Source: an archaeon
GTDB lineage: Archaea; Micrarchaeota; Micrarchaeia; Norongarragalinales; UBA97
Assembly (NCBI GenBank): GCA_020057405.1
Contig: JAGVFW010000010.1
Coordinates: forward strand, 1-30,389
DNA: 30,389 nt
Direction of reading: 5' to 3'
In this document: in pieces, positions 9,964 through 16,540 of the stretch
How the letters are laid out: each line of letters opens with the position of its first letter
Numbering within the stretch: the stretch's first letter is position 1
Notes under the pieces: generated by a model
Told to the model about the DNA's origin: nothing
The model's database searches: none
The model's input: the letters and a program-made list of their open reading frames with translations, nothing else
Made by a program: the position numbers and the translations under genes

Positions 9964-10821
9964 GTGACCGAACAACTCATTTCAGTGAAGGCGAAACCCA
10001 AACCGCGCCTGTCCCAGAATTTCCTCATCGCCCCAGAGTTTCCGATGGAAATAGCGGAGCGCCTCCCCCTCTTAGGAAAGAGCGTGCTTGAAATCGGCGC
10101 CGGGACGGGCTTTCTAACCGCCGAGCTCGCAAAGCACGCCAAAACCGTGACCGCAGTCGAGGTTGACCCCGACTTGCTTTCCGAGCTAAAGGAACAGCTT
10201 GCCGGAGCCAAGAACGTCAAAATCAAGATTGCCGACGCACTCGAGTTTGACTTAAGCGGCTATGACTGCATCTTCGGCGCCCTCCCCTACCACCTTTCTT
10301 CCCCGCTTCTCTTCCGCATTCTTGCAACGGGTTGCCCCGACGCCGTTCTCGTCCTGCAAAAAGAGTTTGCCGAACGGCTTTGCGGTGCGCCGGGCTCAAA
10401 AGACTGGTCGCGGCTATCCGCAATGGCGCAAGCGGACTACGACGCGACTCTCGTCGACGTAATTCCAGCACACTGCTTCTTTCCAATCCCGAACGTCGAC
10501 TCTGCAATCGTTCACTTGACGCGAAAGCCGCTAAGCAAGCGCGTCTCGCTAAACGCCGAACTAGTCGCCGCGCTTTTCCAGCACAAGAACCAAAACGTGA
10601 AAAAGTCGTTGCTTCACTCGGCACACGCGCTTAAAATTGACGAAACCGCGCTTTCGCGTTTTGCCGACTCGCTTCCAAAAGAGCTTTCCTCAAAGCGCCC
10701 GCGCGCCCTGACCTTAAGCGAGCTTTCCGAGCTTAGCCGTTTGAGTCTTCGACTGCTTGTTCGAAAGCCTGGTGCAACATCGCAATCAGGTAGCCCTGAG
10801 CGTAGCGTCCCTGTCGCCTGA
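9964..10821 (+). CDS. ksgA: 16S rRNA m6,2A dimethyltransferase KsgA/Dim1
   Basis: LSQNFL, VLEIGAGTG.LT, AVEVD, ALPYHLSSP, QKEFAERL, P.PNVDSA. Start GTG 9964 inferred. Confidence 0.93.
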   Translation: MTEQLISVKAKPKPRLSQNFLIAPEFPMEIAERLPLLGKSVLEIGAGTGFLTAELAKHAKTVTAVEVDPDLLSELKEQLAGAKNVKIKIADALEFDLSGYDCIFGALPYHLSSPLLFRILATGCPDAVLVLQKEFAERLCGAPGSKDWSRLSAMAQADYDATLVDVIPAHCFFPIPNVDSAIVHLTRKPLSKRVSLNAELVAALFQHKNQNVKKSLLHSAHALKIDETALSRFADSLPKELSSKRPRALTLSELSELSRLSLRLLVRKPGATSQSGSPERSVPVA

Positions 10822-11794
10822 TTTCGCCGCTTTGCACCGCGTCCTCAACCACTTGCCGTCCGGCTTCCACGACGGCTTCGAGCTTTTCTTTCGAGTGCCG
10901 CCTTACCTCAAGCCAATGTCTCGCCCGCTCCTCGATTTGGGCGTCACTGGGTATCGTCCGGTCTTTTTCCGATTCCACGCGCTTCCTGAACGCCATGAGC
11001 GAGGGAGTCAAGGGCTTGGCTGGAATTTCTTTTGCAGCCTCCTTCTTGCGTGCATCTATTTTCTTTAGCCTCTCGACTGCCATTTTATCGAATACTTGGC
11101 GGGAAGTTTCCCCGGCGTGGGACTGAAACGAGTGTTCGTTCAGGTTGTAATGCGGCAGGTTCTTGAGCACCGTCGCTACCGCGTGGCCCGTAAGCACTGC
11201 GGCAAGAAACCGCCTGTTCTCGCCCCCAGCCAGTCTCCCCTTGTCTATGAACTGTTCTGCAATGAGCTGGATTTGCGGCTCCATTGCTTTTTTGAGCCTT
11301 AGAACCAGCCGCCTTCTTTCCGGCAGGTCTTCTCCCGCCCGCTGCGTGTCTTGGGCAAGCTCATGCAGCACTGTTTTCGCCCTTTCTGCCGCTGCCCTGA
11401 GAGTTTGGGGGCTGGGCACCTCAAAATCTTTCTCTTCCTCGTTAGCCGCCTTGAGCAATTTTTCAATCGCCTGGCCGTGAATTTGCCTGGCCCGCTCCCG
11501 GCCGGCTCGATGGCCCATTACCCTGAGTTCGCCCGCTATTTCTTTAAACGAGGCGCCTTCCAACTCGTGTCGCAAAAACACGTGCCTTTCCTTTTCATTG
11601 AGCGCGTCAAGCAGTTGGCGCAAGTACTCTGCATCAAGGACGCTATCGAGCTGCTTTTGCGCTTTGGGGTCGTCGCGGGAGATTTTGGGCCGCCTCCAGC
11701 GCAGCTCCCCCTCCGCTTCCCGCAATCCCCCATCTTGCCTGATTTTGAAGGCCGTAGGCTCGCGCTTTGGTTTTCCGCCGGCATTTCGCTTCAT
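10733..11794 (-). CDS. Protein with a sigma-70 region-4-like HTH and a possible region-2-like segment
   Basis: aa ~58-114 LDALNEKERHVF..HELEGASFKEIAGEL...RERARQIHGQAIEKL; aa ~160-240 weakly resemble region 2. Confidence 0.75.
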   Translation of the reverse strand: MKRNAGGKPKREPTAFKIRQDGGLREAEGELRWRRPKISRDDPKAQKQLDSVLDAEYLRQLLDALNEKERHVFLRHELEGASFKEIAGELRVMGHRAGRERARQIHGQAIEKLLKAANEEEKDFEVPSPQTLRAAAERAKTVLHELAQDTQRAGEDLPERRRLVLRLKKAMEPQIQLIAEQFIDKGRLAGGENRRFLAAVLTGHAVATVLKNLPHYNLNEHSFQSHAGETSRQVFDKMAVERLKKIDARKKEAAKEIPAKPLTPSLMAFRKRVESEKDRTIPSDAQIEERARHWLEVRRHSKEKLEAVVEAGRQVVEDAVQSGEIRRQGRYAQGYLIAMLHQAFEQAVEDSNG

Positions 11795-12051: not shown

Positions 12052-12161
12052 ACGTATCATCTCCAATACACAATTTCCTCCAACTGAAATAAATAGCTTG
12101 TGCCTCAATTTAGTGAATAAGGGCCTCAAAGGGCTTGTTTTCCCAAATAGAGTGCGTTGCA

Positions 12162-13721
12162 ATGGAACCAGACCTCGAGGAGTTTATCTCTGGCCTTAGC
12201 CTCGACTTTACCAAACTGCAGCCGCGCGAGTACCAAGTGCGCGCAGCGAAGGCCGTGATAGAGCGCGGAAACACTCTTGTCGTGATGCCGACCGCCTTGG
12301 GCAAGACATTCGTCGCCGTCCTCGCGATGGCAAAATTCCTGCAGCGCAACCCAAAGAGCCGCTTTCTTTTCCTCGCGCCCACAAAACCCCTCGTTCTCCA
12401 GCAGGCCAACCGGCTGGCGGAGCTTCTCAACATCAAGGCCGAGGCAATTACCGGCGAAATGGCGCCAGAAAGCCGCCGCGGCCTCTACACCTCTGCGCAG
12501 CTGATTTGCGCCACTCCCCAGACAATCAAAAATGACCTGCGCTTTACCGACTTCTCGCATTTCGCCATAGTTGTTTTCGACGAGGCGCACCGAACCGTCG
12601 GCGACTACGCTTACGTCCCCATTGCGAAAAAAGCCGTGGCGCAGGGTTGCCGCGTGCTCGCCCTCACCGCATCCCCGTCCGCAGAGCGCGAGAAAATCGA
12701 CGAAATCCGCGGCCACCTGGGCATCGAGCACGTTGAAATCAAGACCGAGACCGACGAGGATGTCGTTGATTACGTCAACAAGGTCGAAGTCGAGTGGGTT
12801 TTCGTTGACTTGCCCCCGGAATTCCCCGCAATGCGAAAGCAACTCCAGTCGCTGGCGCAAGACGCCTACTCCGGCATCACCCGCGCAGGCTTTCCTCTCC
12901 CGCCCCTGGGGTTTCTCAAGCGCACAGACTTGCTTGCATTGCGCCTCAAGCTCACGCAATCAATCAAGCGACAAGACGTGCGCGCTTACGGTGCGATGAG
13001 CTCGCTTGCCAAGCTCATGAATGTCCTTCACGCAATTGACTTGCTTGAGAGCCAGGGCATCGAGCCTCTGCGCAAGTTCCTTGAGGGCTTTGAGGAGAGA
13101 AAAGCCGCCAGCAAGGCGGTCGCGGCCCTCGCGAGAGAGCCTGCAGTAAAGACGATAATCGCAGACTGCGCCGCGCTTGAAGCGCTCGGAGTCGAGCACC
13201 CCAAGTACGCCAAGCTCAAGGAAATAGTCGGCACGGCTGCAGAGGGGGGCCAAGGCATCATCGTTTTCGCGAACTTCCGTGACACTGTCTCCAAATTAGT
13301 CGAGGAGCTAAACGCCTTGCGTCACGTGAAAGCCCGCCAGCTAATCGGCCGCGGCGGCAAGGGCATGTCGCAAAAGCAGCAGGGCGCGCTCATCGACGCC
13401 TTCAGGTTCAAGGAATTCAATTGCATGGTGTGCTCAAGCGTTGGCGAGGAGGGGCTCGACATTCCTTCAGTCGACTTAGTCGTCTTTTTCGAGGCGGTGC
13501 CAAGCGAAATCCGCCTCATCCAGCGCCGCGGCAGGACCGGCAGGATGAGGGCAGGAAAAGTAATCGTGCTTGTCGCAAAGGGCACGCGCGACGAGGCATA
13601 CCTGCACGTTGCCCGCCGCAAGGAAAAGCAGATGCATTCCGAGCTCGAGCGAATCCGCAGCGAGCTCGAGGACAGCAGCGAAAAGCCGGCTGACGGACAG
13701 AAGAAACTTGACGGCTTTTGA
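12162..13721 (+). CDS. hef: Hef/FANCM-type SF2 helicase (helicase-only polypeptide)
   Basis: [51 protein letters not shown]; ends in QKKLDGF. Confidence 0.93.
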
Positions 13722-13827
13722 AGAGACGGCTGGCAGTATAAGCGCTTAGCGTCAGAGCCATTCCGATCAACGGGCTCCGGCGGCCACTAGCTGCTTTTTT
13801 TAATCACTGCATCCCATACCACTGCTT

Positions 13828-15864
13828 ATGCGGCTTGCTGCTTATCCTTGGTTCCAAAGGCTCGACAAGCTGGTCCACAGCGGCAGCGTGGACATTCCGA
13901 ATTTGGGAGAACGGCGCTTTACCGGCACGAGCGTTGAGGACCACGCAAACGCGGTGGCCGAACTTACTGGCCGTTTCATCCACGGCATTCCCGTCGACAT
14001 GGCTAGGGCTTCAGTCGCACCCAAATTCGATGATGTTAACATGCGGGCTTTTGTTGTTGCAGCCTACTTCAAGGAGCTTCTTGGAAATCCCCAGCTGATT
14101 TCGGGCGTGCGCATCAGGCACTACTCTACCCACCAGGTGCCAACTTTCTGGAAGAGAGTGCGCAGGACGGCCGGCTTTGACCGCAAGAAAGCGCCCTTAA
14201 TGGGACAAAGGGAAATAGCCGCGCTTTCCCGCAACGGCTTTACCGTGATGTCGACGAAGGAGTTTCAAAGATTCAACCGCGCCGTAATTACCGATCACGT
14301 GGAGCCCGCGCTGGAGCAGGGGCGGGTCCTCAGGCCGCTTCTCTTGAGCCGCAACATACTTTCAAAAGAAGGAATTGACCGGGCGCAAAAACTCCTGGAG
14401 CTGGTTGACACGATACGCTTGCATGAGACAATCTACGGCACTCCGGTGCTCAAAGATAACGAAATGAAAGACATAGATCCAATTCTATACAAGAGCGCAC
14501 TCGTCATCCGGTCAATGGACCTGCTTCAATCCCTCCGAGAAGCAGCCAAGGACGAGAGCGTCGCAACTAGCGACTACGCCTACAACATCGCGTGCCATGC
14601 GTACAACCATTACCGCCGGCTGTTTAGGGCCAGCGGCTTCTACGACCTCCACCGCAGGATGTCGGATGCGGCTTCGCGCATTTTCTTCAAACGCGAGAAC
14701 TTGCTCCGCTCCCTTCCAAAAAGAGTCGTAAAGTATGATTACGACGACGTGGCGGGCCTTTACAGAAAACCTGAAGTAAAGCGCTACCTAGACGATACGC
14801 GCAAGCTGATGCGCGGACTTACTGACCAGACGCTCTTGCGCATGGGTTTGAGCCGCATCGAGGAGTCCGCGGAAACATTCCAGGAAATCAAGGACCCGTG
14901 GTCGGTCATCGAGAAATATTATTCGGTTTGGACGCGCCACAAGAAACGAGGAAAACTGGAAGCGCCGTTGGGTGACAAGCTCACGAATCCGCTTCTTGTC
15001 CACGACCTTGTCCGCACGCGCGTAATCCTCGATAACGTCGATGACTGCTATGCCTTTGCAAAAGGAAAGCTTGACGCAAATGTCGCCAAGAAGAGCGGCA
15101 TCGATGAAATTCTTGACGAATGGGTTAAGTCTGGCCGCATCACTTCGTTCAAGGTGCACCAGTATCGGGACTACATCGCTTCGCCAAAAGACAATGGCTA
15201 TAGTGCGCTTCACGTCATTGTTGACGTCGAAGTGCCCGGAAAGAACGGCAATCTTTGGCTTTTCAACAGGCGCCGACGCATGGAATTCCAGGTGCTGACT
15301 AAAGAGATGTGGGAGAACAACGAGAAGGGCACGGCGCACCACGAATTAGAAAAAGAACCCAAGAAAGGCGGCGTGGTCGAGGGCGCGTACGCGGGCACAG
15401 TTCCAAAATTCAAGAACGTCAACCTTGCTGACATAGACCTAGCGAACATTGGTGAACACTTTAAGACCGCGGCCGGTGAAGGCACGGACGTGGGCATCAG
15501 GCCGTGGGAGGATTCTCTCGTCGTTAAAATTAATGACAGCAACCCGCCCTACCGGCTTACTGGCGATGACACTTTTGCCTATGCCCTCGCGATGCATTTA
15601 CCGAGGTACGCAAGCGAACTTAAAAAACACCGGCGCGATATCGTGTTGCTGGATCAAGAGACCAATCGGCCGATTCCGCTTGACTCGACGCCTTCCCGCG
15701 ACAACACTTATGTGAAAGTCAAACTTATCTCCCCCGGTTCCGAGGACGAAAAGCGGTTTGCCGGATATATACGTTCGCCCAAGGAAATAATGCAACTGGT
15801 GCCCGAGCACCGCCAAGACGAGCTGGACAAAGTCCGCCGCACGCTCGGCAAGTTGTTGAAGTGA
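13828..15864 (+). CDS. RelA/SpoT-homologue (RSH)-like protein: degenerate HD, synthetase and TGS-like domains
   Basis: KDPWSVIEK, HDLVRTRVILDNVDDCY, YRDYIASPKDNGYSALHVIV, EFQVLTKEM..NEKGTAHH; N-terminal RFTG..DHANAVA; C-terminal GDDTFAYALAMH. Confidence 0.85.
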   Translation: MRLAAYPWFQRLDKLVHSGSVDIPNLGERRFTGTSVEDHANAVAELTGRFIHGIPVDMARASVAPKFDDVNMRAFVVAAYFKELLGNPQLISGVRIRHYSTHQVPTFWKRVRRTAGFDRKKAPLMGQREIAALSRNGFTVMSTKEFQRFNRAVITDHVEPALEQGRVLRPLLLSRNILSKEGIDRAQKLLELVDTIRLHETIYGTPVLKDNEMKDIDPILYKSALVIRSMDLLQSLREAAKDESVATSDYAYNIACHAYNHYRRLFRASGFYDLHRRMSDAASRIFFKRENLLRSLPKRVVKYDYDDVAGLYRKPEVKRYLDDTRKLMRGLTDQTLLRMGLSRIEESAETFQEIKDPWSVIEKYYSVWTRHKKRGKLEAPLGDKLTNPLLVHDLVRTRVILDNVDDCYAFAKGKLDANVAKKSGIDEILDEWVKSGRITSFKVHQYRDYIASPKDNGYSALHVIVDVEVPGKNGNLWLFNRRRRMEFQVLTKEMWENNEKGTAHHELEKEPKKGGVVEGAYAGTVPKFKNVNLADIDLANIGEHFKTAAGEGTDVGIRPWEDSLVVKINDSNPPYRLTGDDTFAYALAMHLPRYASELKKHRRDIVLLDQETNRPIPLDSTPSRDNTYVKVKLISPGSEDEKRFAGYIRSPKEIMQLVPEHRQDELDKVRRTLGKLLK

Positions 15865-15874
15865 TTAGCCCCCC

Positions 15875-16540
15875 ATGACCAGCCTGCGCATTATGGTTGA
15901 CGACCGCGAGGCAAGCGGTGCCGTAGTCGCACGCCTGCGAAAACTCGGCGTTACGATTGAGGTCAAGCGCCTGCCGGTTGCCGACTTCGTGCTCTCCGAC
16001 CGCGTGGCAGTTGAGCGGAAAACCGCTGCCGACTTTGAGTCAAGCGTGGTTGACGGCAGGCTGTTCGAGCAGGCCGGCCGCCTGAAGGCAGAATTCGCTT
16101 CGCCTCTAATCTGCGTTGTTGGCAACGACTTTTTCCGCCTCGAAAAAGCTGCGCGCCGCGGAGTGCTCATCGCCCTTGCAACCGACTTCAATTTGCCGGT
16201 CTTCTTCCTTGAGAGCGAGGAGTCGCTCGCCGACTTCATGGTGCAGATTGCAACCCGCGAGCAACTGTCGAAGAAGCACGACCACAAGCTGCAGTTTGCG
16301 AAAAAGACTGAAATCCTGGCAGAACAGCAGCAGCTCATTATCGAGAGCTTACCCGGCATCGGGCCGTCAACAGCCAAGGCGCTTCTGGCGCACTTTGGCA
16401 GCGTCGAGAACGTGCTTACTGCCGATGAGGAAGAACTCTTGGCCGCACCCGGCGTTGGCCCCGAGCGGGCTAGGGCGTTAAAGAAAATAGTGTGCGGCGA
16501 TTACTCGCCGCAAAAAGAAAGTAGAAGCCCCTTAGCCTAG
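15875..16540 (+). CDS. ERCC4/XPF-family nuclease with two HhH motifs (Hef nuclease half)
   Basis: VDDRE, L.VADFVLS, VERKTAADF..S..DGRLFEQ, SLPGIGPSTAKALL, APGVG. Confidence 0.93.
   Translation: MTSLRIMVDDREASGAVVARLRKLGVTIEVKRLPVADFVLSDRVAVERKTAADFESSVVDGRLFEQAGRLKAEFASPLICVVGNDFFRLEKAARRGVLIALATDFNLPVFFLESEESLADFMVQIATREQLSKKHDHKLQFAKKTEILAEQQQLIIESLPGIGPSTAKALLAHFGSVENVLTADEEELLAAPGVGPERARALKKIVCGDYSPQKESRSPLA

Follow-up and report, generated by a model that had tools for sequence, protein, structure and literature searches.

Bifunctional RelA/SpoT homologues (RSHs) of the Rel type, in which both catalytic domains are present, are among the described systems closest to the protein analyzed here. 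In the parts that concern archaea, Atkinson et al. 2011 described them as being without long RSHs and as having only a few small ones (PMC3153485). The preprint of Jimmy et al. 2019 distinguishes 13 subfamilies of long RSHs; archaea are not discussed in that part. Li et al. 2021 reported RelA/SpoT in Diapherotrites (69.0%), Woesearchaeota (41.7%), Pacearchaeota (21.3%) and Nanoarchaeota (19.0%), and predicted these DPANN proteins to be of bacterial origin (PMC8407392). In its relevant part, that report stays at the level of annotation, with no domain or site analysis, and Micrarchaeota are not among the phyla listed (PMC8407392). Searching the literature for DPANN with ppGpp or for archaeal long RSHs yielded nothing more specific. 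We analyzed contig JAGVFW010000010.1 from a Micrarchaeota-labelled archaeon over its whole length of 30,389 nucleotides (the window). It contains a gene for a protein of 678 amino acids (aa) that an earlier, sequence-only reading had described as a long-RSH-type protein. That reading held long RSHs to be exclusive to bacteria and plastids, a dated view since RelA/SpoT in DPANN was reported in 2021 (PMC8407392). Archaeal genes of this kind are thus already on record, and the 678-aa protein is an unusual variant and no new class of system.

The 678-aa protein is a real and conserved member of the RSH superfamily. It is encoded by a single open reading frame (ORF) with an ATG start and an intact frame. 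The same ATG start is used by P0002, the sole close homologue, which has 677 aa and is 63% identical over the full length. The proposed long-RSH-type layout, in which a hydrolase-like half precedes the synthetase and a short tail follows it, was supported, and the motifs quoted for it were all found at the implied places. It is very diverged and of a truncated long-RSH type, its hydrolase being degenerate and its synthetase pocket apparently rebuilt. We favor, with modest confidence, the reading that it is a monofunctional alarmone-type pyrophosphokinase.

Close homologues are rare. A word-indexed search of 5.8 billion clusters, with 7999 candidates scored, returned the protein itself and P0002 alone. 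An exhaustive HMMER profile search of 1.84 billion representatives gave 7 proteins at E ≤ 0.001, and only P0002 was below 1e-10. One close homologue was found among about 15 billion proteins. In a phylum-wide search the protein matched 1 of 401 genomes, namely its own, and none of the 400 others. Among the genomes of 41 relatives there were two matches, its own genome and a weak one in genome G036. Scanning the genome contig collection with the protein revealed no relative. In the same collection, Hef retrieved bacterial helicase fragments only.

The synthetase domain was detected directly. Pfam RelA_SpoT (PF04607) matched residues 364-507 with 45.3 bits (E 1.2e-11, cut-off 27), and reached 48.1 bits when residues 342-542 were scanned alone. 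The NCBIfam RelA/SpoT models stayed far below threshold (e.g. TIGR00691, 31.5 bits vs a cut-off of 499). The best sequence match among solved structures was E. coli RelA (E 0.0068), with residues 445-522 aligned to RelA 306-371. In this alignment QYRDYIASPKDNGYSALH corresponds to EFDDYVANPKPNGYQSIH, and MEFQVLTKEMW to VEIQIRTKQMH. A literature search under the motif word EIQIRT gave no papers.

The protein was then compared with RelA_SpoT ORFs from the same Micrarchaeota-labelled order, for which 68 genomes were scanned with the Pfam model (the order family). Such ORFs were present in 26 of the 68 genomes, with 25 over the cut-off, and in 11 of the 22 genomes that are at least 90% complete. 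Their length is 179-620 aa, and in most of them the domain is preceded by 200-390 residues and followed by 100-200. One relative carries the NCBI label Candidatus Micrarchaeota, and another, L034, is named 'HD domain-containing protein' by NCBI. Pfam listed HD_4 in 8 of the 25 ORFs, over the cut-off in two (L034, 37.5 bits; L028, 28.7 bits), and TGS in three, none over the cut-off (L026, 21.2; L046, 20.0; L030, 14.9). Two alignments were built, A2 and A3, both leaving out four short or truncated ORFs of the 25 (L036, L042, L044, L050) and the weak L049 match. The 22 relatives used in alignments and column counts form A3 together with the 678-aa protein and P0002 (24 rows). The A3 profile matched B. 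subtilis Rel (6yxa) with E 1.4e-78, profile positions 20-487 to chain positions 30-495, a span that covers hydrolase, synthetase and TGS. It also matched 34 more chains, which include RelA, RelSeq, T. thermophilus Rel, SpoT, RelP, RelQ and CapRel as well as Mesh1-type hydrolases and isolated TGS chains (2kmm, 1.5e-5; 3hvz, 2e-4). Based on these matches, the order family consists of truncated long RSHs with hydrolase-like, synthetase and TGS parts.

The 678-aa protein is a far outlier of this family, which about a third of the order's genomes carry. An hhalign comparison of the protein plus P0002 with the 22 relatives gave a probability of 98.9% (E 2.2e-17) over residues 214-513. This match covers the whole synthetase, and it places IRSMDLLQSLR on the family pattern R..D....L and YRRLFRASGFYDLHRRMSD (YRRLF...MSD) on Y.PLA........E..AF. 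The A2 family profile matched a single gene in this genome, that of the 678-aa protein (75.3 bits). Domain order and the invariant synthetase K, D, Y and H are common to the protein and the order ORFs. In contrast, identity is only 14-21% (MAFFT), and the protein is 60-300 aa longer than its relatives (350-620 aa) and has a basic insertion of 56 aa. It also differs from the family in general by E353, R396, L490 and W495, and residues 1-213 and 514-678 have no detectable similarity to the family.

Site residues were mapped by alignment, and their conservation was counted in the 22 relatives (Table 1). In RelP, as the site is described in PMC5794853, adenine is stacked between R78 and R112, the phosphates are held by K80, S84, K88 and R91, and D107 and E174 are the Mg ligands. 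For RelSeq, the corresponding description names R241 and R269 as adenine clamp, D264 and E323 as catalytic and Y308 as the residue stacking guanine (PMC7983052). The K..S..EK pattern, the Asp of HDL (392-394), DYI..PK.NGY..LH (448-462) and E.Q had been listed as retained in the 678-aa protein, and the column counts agree. Thus both Mg ligands (D393, E486), the phosphate residues K355, S359 and K363 and the acceptor-stacking Y458 are kept. QYRD (445-448) indeed stands at the RxKD/ExDD position, where E. coli RelA has EFDD. Two usually conserved Arg residues had been reported as replaced, in EIK (353-355) and EFQVLT (486-491), and the counts bear this out: Arg is found in 21 of 22 relatives at the position of E353 and in 16 of 22 at that of L490. 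The Arg pair of the adenine sandwich is therefore incomplete, with R398 kept and the first Arg being E353.

A further change, missed in the sequence-only reading, lies three residues past the catalytic Asp. At position 396, 21 of 22 relatives carry Ala or Gly, whereas the 678-aa protein and P0002 carry Arg. L030 is the sole relative with Arg at this position, and also the sole relative with Glu at position 353. E353 and R396 thus occur together in 3 of 24 rows, and the other 21 have neither. Because E353 is coupled to a new R396, the site appears rebuilt and not decayed, and we infer that the clamp Arg has moved from the first strand to the neighboring one. A tree built from all 24 rows over the counterparts of residues 214-507 had good support for 7 of its 21 inner branches and left most of the branching order unresolved. 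Identity to P0002 is 81% in the synthetase and 47-63% in every other region, which fits purifying selection centered on the synthetase domain.

These data also bear on an explanation that we consider unlikely, namely that the protein is a pseudo-enzyme that no longer transfers pyrophosphate and whose synthetase fold now serves structure or regulation (e.g. binding of a nucleotide, tRNA or a partner). The three exchanges E353, L490 and W495 would fit such a loss, since they fall on positions with Arg in 21/22, Arg in 16/22 and His in 18/22 relatives. The hydrolase half is already a pseudo-domain, and the score of the curated RSH model TIGR00691 (31.5 vs 499) is very low. However, the protein retains both metal ligands, three phosphate residues, the acceptor Tyr and the second Arg of the clamp. 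The synthetase is the best-conserved region with respect to P0002, and the sequences that lost R353 are those that gained R396.

The overall fold was examined in AlphaFold models. With the 24-sequence alignment (MAFFT to relatives), the mean predicted local distance difference test score (pLDDT) was 68.1 and the predicted template modeling score was 0.63. A model from a 2-sequence alignment was poor (mean pLDDT 43.2), and a wide structure search with it gave generic helical bundles only. The Foldseek matches of the 24-sequence model listed at E ≤ 0.001 (30 counted) were all long RSHs or small synthetases. Superposition on Rel, which had been suggested as a check, was successful: VIA-align superposed model residues 1-501 on 8acu_B with Z 20.3 and a root-mean-square deviation (rmsd) of 3.9 over 300 of 331 residues. 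Other Rel catalytic halves were likewise superposed from model residue 1 (7oiw_A, Z 20.3; 6s2u, Z 19.8). Taken separately, model residues 1-294 superpose on phosphodiesterase HD folds (Z about 11.5). Residues 306-513 superpose on small alarmone synthetases (Z 12.4-14.2), and in this family-informed model the synthetase fold is present.

For the N-terminal half, the complete order of a long RSH had been claimed from four hydrolase correspondences. Two of them, IRSMDLLQSLR (227-237) and YRRLF...MSD (262-280), are supported because both lie inside the hhalign match 214-513, in which residues 214-300 align with the last hydrolase helices of the family. The other two, RFTG..DHANAVA (RFTG 30-33, DHANAVA 38-44) and AAYFKEL (78-84), did not rise above chance. 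Residues 1-213 scored 12.1 against the N-terminal columns of the family, compared with 11.06 ± 1.98 (maximum 16.4) for 60 column shuffles. A collinear alignment with E 0.076 was obtained for residues 1-215 with the full family profile; in it, H39 and VAAYF fall on the family H and AAL columns. These two correspondences rest on the MAFFT alignment, the family-informed model and a lead from a protein-language-model Atlas. In the Atlas, where matches count at 0.9, residues 1-213 are nearest to HD_4 clusters at 0.85, which we take as a lead only. No Pfam HD or HD_4 match was found in residues 1-213, even when the three parts of the protein were each scanned separately at E up to 10, and these scans gave no TGS or ACT match either. 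A hydrolase-type N-terminus is thus weakly suggested by two independent lines, the Atlas lead and the AlphaFold superposition.

The catalytic His-Asp pair of long RSHs is absent from the 678-aa protein. Its place after AAYF is taken by K82-E83, and P0002 has Lys-Glu there too, in agreement with the claim of a dead hydrolase. The loss is not peculiar to this protein but family-wide: after the AAL motif, 10 of 22 relatives have His, one has Asp (L046) and 13 have Gly at the Asp position, and the pair is degenerate in 21 of the 22. In the equivalent of ADRLHN, D231 is kept (as in 13/22 relatives), and Q-S is found where bacterial Rel has H-N. The half also contains the basic insertion of 56 residues (88-143; 11 K/R, 2 D/E, net +9; pLDDT < 50), a gap in 22/22 relatives in A3. 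It is 61% identical to P0002, with QVPTFWKR and KAPLMG invariant, and could be a nucleic-acid-binding or partner-binding loop.

The tail had been called TGS-like. Residues 563-640 are modeled as strands and helices that resemble a beta-grasp (pLDDT about 59-86, and about 80 already with the 2-sequence alignment), MAFFT places them on the TGS region of the order family, and the nearest named Atlas clusters are all TGS (0.76-0.80; a lead only). Pfam and hhalign gave no support for a TGS domain. A TGS-like nature of these residues is plausible but unproven. Absence of ZFD and ACT had also been noted, and the 171 residues after the synthetase indeed had no Pfam or NCBIfam match to AH, ZFD or ACT/RRM domains. 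The protein ends 38 residues past the TGS-like part, leaving no room for AH, ZFD or ACT.

Compared with solved systems, bifunctional Rel (6yxa, 8acu, S. aureus 7oiw, 6s2u, RelSeq 1vj7) provided the best structural matches (Z 19.6-20.3), over both catalytic domains. Rel keeps HD, ED, ADRLHN and both clamp Arg residues (RelSeq R241 and R269; PMC7983052), whereas the 678-aa protein has K-E and E353. E. coli RelA (5iqr, 5kps; VIA Z 19.3, 315 residues aligned) has in common with it the logic of a pseudo-hydrolase, an active-type synthetase and, probably, TGS. It differs by its ribosome-binding AH, ZFD and ACT, none of which is found in the 678-aa protein, and its hydrolase was apparently lost independently. 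RelP and RelQ (6fgx, 6ex0, 5ded) superpose with the Z range given above for small synthetases (rmsd 2.7-3.4, about 151-160 residues aligned to the synthetase model). The equivalents of RelP K80, S84, K88, D107, R112 and E174 are present and that of R78 is E353; unlike the 678-aa protein, RelP and RelQ are single-domain tetramers. CapRel/toxSAS (7ztb, 9erv) have the synthetase fold in common (Z 11.2-11.4). In contrast to the 678-aa protein, they have no hydrolase-like N-terminal half and another C-terminal part, and they follow a toxin-antitoxin or fused-antitoxin logic, of which none was seen at this locus.

Searching the genome for a cognate small hydrolase, as had been proposed, gave one candidate on contig 11. 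The gene (L051:1351-2106, + strand) encodes 252 aa with an HD_4 match of 42.4 bits (cut-off 27.2), and LLHD and KLADRIHN are present. After HD it has E-N, where Rel and SpoT have E-D. Its three neighboring genes had no Pfam match. The 252-aa protein is a candidate small alarmone hydrolase. In the mechanism that we propose, Mg-ATP would be bound by D393, E486, K355, S359 and K363, and the acceptor base would be stacked on Y458. Pyrophosphate would be transferred to the 3'-OH, giving (p)ppGpp or a close analogue. The donor pocket would have been rebuilt by relocation of one adenine-sandwich Arg from the strand of E353 to R396 on the neighboring strand. Behind the synthetase, the chain would continue through a disordered linker into a probable TGS-like beta-grasp and end in a helix, without the ribosome-binding ZFD and ACT. 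Removal of the product would fall to the HD_4 hydrolase encoded separately on contig 11. The 678-aa protein is among the most diverged DPANN proteins of the RelA/SpoT type, and its catalytic core is conserved more strongly than the rest. The apparent relocation of the ATP-clamp Arg and a separate, intact-looking hydrolase make a compact pair for study, raising the questions of whether ultra-small archaea make an alarmone and how far an RSH synthetase site can be rebuilt while still working.

Several observations weigh against the pyrophosphokinase reading. Residues 1-213 are not significantly similar to the order family, the tail has no Pfam TGS match, and hhalign found no match to the family for residues 514-678 (probability 0.2%). 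The 24-sequence model depends on the MAFFT alignment with the relatives. At E353, a negative charge has replaced the adenine-clamping Arg of 21/22 relatives, L490 and W495 are changed as well, and any of the three might abolish catalysis. Compensation by R396 is deduced from co-occurrence, and the best tree requires two changes for the E353/R396 swap, a single origin being also compatible. G001, a genome of the same genus with 73% completeness, lacks the RSH-like gene. As for the candidate hydrolase, the contig-11 query matched 5 of 68 order genomes, four with a RelA_SpoT match and one (G007) without; these numbers are small and the genomes are kin.

Less probable again than loss of catalysis is that the protein is an active transferase with new specificity, which would use another donor or acceptor and make e.g. 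(pp)pApp, or pyrophosphorylate the 3'-end of RNA or tRNA, and not produce (p)ppGpp. It is the donor-base clamp that has changed (PMC7983052), the basic insertion (net +9) and the TGS-like tail could bind RNA, and the synthetase superposes on the tRNA pyrophosphokinase CapRel (9erv_A, Z 11.4, rmsd 2.9, 152 residues aligned). In contrast, the Tyr-His pattern of the G-loop for guanine nucleotides is kept (Y458, H462), and Rel (Z 20) and RelP/RelQ are closer than CapRel. A speculative extension, to which we give little credence, is that the E353/R396 exchange reshapes the donor pocket towards a non-canonical pyrophosphorylated nucleotide or RNA 3'-end modification. With the contig-11 HD_4 hydrolase, this would form a private archaeal make-and-break signal. 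Co-transcription with the Hef nuclease gene would link this signal to stress at replication forks or from DNA damage instead of to amino-acid sensing at the ribosome.

Table 1. Features of the RSH-like gene and its flanks, and residues of the synthetase site
Feature	Window position	Strand	Basis or equivalent residue	Relatives with conserved residue (n = 22)
Hef helicase half, 528 aa, upstream	12135..13721	+	NF010337, 540 bits, profile 10-520 of 781	
TTTTTTTAAT, possible archaeal TATA box (leaderless mRNA) and/or oligo-T terminator of the helicase gene	13795..13804	+	sequence reading	
Whole ORF, truncated long-RSH-like protein	13828..15864	+	ORF list; Pfam RelA_SpoT 45.3 bits; P0002	
Residues 1-300, degenerate hydrolase-like (pseudo-HD) half, K82-E83 at catalytic His-Asp place	13828..14727	+	hhalign (214-300), model superposition	
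Residues 88-143, basic insertion in hydrolase-like half, lineage-specific	14089..14256	+	gap in 22/22 relatives, charge count	
Residues 305-507, synthetase (RelA_SpoT) domain	14740..15348	+	Pfam, structure superposition, column counts	
Residues 508-562, low-confidence linker	15349..15513	+	pLDDT 23-48 per block; 55% identity to P0002	
Residues 563-640, TGS-like beta-grasp candidate	15514..15747	+	modeled elements, MAFFT placement	
Residues 641-678, C-terminal helix (model helix 660-677)	15748..15861	+	model; no Pfam match	
Hef nuclease half, 221 aa, downstream	15875..16540	+	NF010337, 214.9 bits, profile 570-780; ERCC4 plus HhH	
K355			RelP K80	22/22
S359			RelP S84	19/22
K363			RelP K88	20/22
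D393			RelP D107	22/22
R398			RelP R112	20/22
Y458			RelSeq Y308	22/22
H462			no RelP/RelSeq equivalent mapped	22/22
E486			RelP E174	17/22
Q488			no RelP/RelSeq equivalent mapped	21/22
E353, changed			RelP R78	R in 21/22
L490, changed			Arg of QIRT motif	R in 16/22
W495, changed			His of MH motif	H in 18/22

The window corresponds to one entire contig in a genome of 1.22 Mb (17 contigs, 90.6% complete). An archaeal host had been deduced, and the neighboring genes agree with it (archaeal histone, TFIIB/TFB, RadA, ribosomal protein S8e, Trm1, KsgA and Hef). The RSH-like gene lies between the two halves of Hef, which is split into separate helicase and nuclease genes. The ATG of the nuclease gene is located 10 nucleotides (nt) past the stop of the RSH-like gene, and the two genes are probably co-transcribed. 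The TTTTTTTAAT box ends 24 nt before the ATG of the RSH-like gene, which probably has its own promoter and possibly a leaderless mRNA.

The order of helicase, cargo, nuclease and membrane protein is the same in G001, where the cargo is an unrelated ORF of 480 aa. We considered this ORF as a relative of the 678-aa protein and rejected it, as it showed no similarity and no Pfam or PADLOC match. The Hef slot was compared at five loci, L019 (G001), L020 (G002), L021 (G007), L022 (G039) and L023 (G005). In G002 it is occupied by an ORF of 439 aa that runs in the opposite direction, in G005 by a gene for a serine hydrolase and in G007, by sequence reading, by APRT- and MTAP-like genes, whereas no long ORF is present in G039. 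In the relatives G008, G013 and G030, Hef is seemingly one fused frame of about 755-768 aa. The former Hef linker looks like an insertion hot spot. The archaeal, syntenic flanks and the differing cargo in relatives indicate that the contig is not chimeric and that the Hef slot is variable.

Neighborhoods of the order family were assessed from 49 flanking ORFs of 25 loci. The gene for alanyl-tRNA synthetase (AlaRS) flanks 8 of the 25, all in one taxonomic family (L029, L032, L034, L037, L038, L040, L041, L047), and directly adjoins the RSH-like gene in those eight genomes. A phosphoenolpyruvate (PEP)-utilizing enzyme (PEP-utilizers_C) also flanks 8 of 25 loci and a class II aldolase three. Phenylalanyl-tRNA synthetase (PheRS) flanks one (L048), as does an OB-fold anticodon-binding domain protein that is possibly an aminoacyl-tRNA synthetase (L045). 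The adjacency to AlaRS, PheRS and the OB-fold protein may be shared synteny only or may reflect a link to tRNA charging. Whereas order relatives adjoin AlaRS or the PEP-utilizing enzyme, the gene for the 678-aa protein lacks this neighborhood and is flanked by the Hef halves. Stable housekeeping neighborhoods argue against a mobile defense gene for the family as a whole.

This setting makes it very unlikely that the protein is a toxin or defense effector of the toxSAS/CapRel type in a variable genomic slot. The unrelated cargo between the Hef halves of relatives would suit such an effector, as would the patchy distribution, with one close homologue in about 15 billion proteins, and a weak PADLOC match on the synthetase domain (candidate system PDC-S33, 23.4 bits). 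However, no small antitoxin-like partner is present, the neighbors being the two Hef halves, and the protein is built like a long RSH whose hydrolase is degenerate, unlike a single-domain toxSAS or CapRel. Other family members have housekeeping neighbors (AlaRS and the PEP-utilizing enzyme, 8 of 25 each), and the composition is not foreign (GC 0.54 over the gene, within a window range of 0.455-0.584). An artefact (chimerism of the contig, contaminating bacterial DNA or a pseudogene in decay), which a very divergent protein of a bacterial-type family might bring to mind, is hardly credible given the intact frame of 678 codons with its 63% identical homologue of 677 aa, archaeal flanks on both sides that are syntenic with G001, and RelA_SpoT ORFs in 26 of 68 order genomes.

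A search around the RSH-like gene for flanking repeats that would mark a mobile insertion gave only short matches. A perfect 14-nt inverted repeat, CTTTTTCGAGGCGG / CCGCCTCGAAAAAG, brackets the gene at 13484-13497 and 16135-16148, with one arm in the helicase gene and one in the nuclease gene; the rough chance expectation is about 0.02 pairs per 2.9 kb. In G021 (contig 9, 99326-102310), the Hef helicase is interrupted within one frame of 1085 aa (profile 57-433, then 431-534 about 1.5 kb on), as would result from about 520 aa inserted in frame, possibly an intein. Elsewhere in the window, a 353-aa ORF (10733-11794, - strand) has as its sole Pfam matches the bacterial sigma-70 region 4 helix-turn-helix (32 and 28 bits). 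Finally, a second very diverged RSH-like pair was observed, L003:454-2265 (G036) and P0009, of 603 and 562 aa and with 29% mutual identity. It scores 26.6 bits with RelA_SpoT, just below the cut-off, has EIQLVN / EVQLVK at the EIQIRT position and adjoins PheRS.

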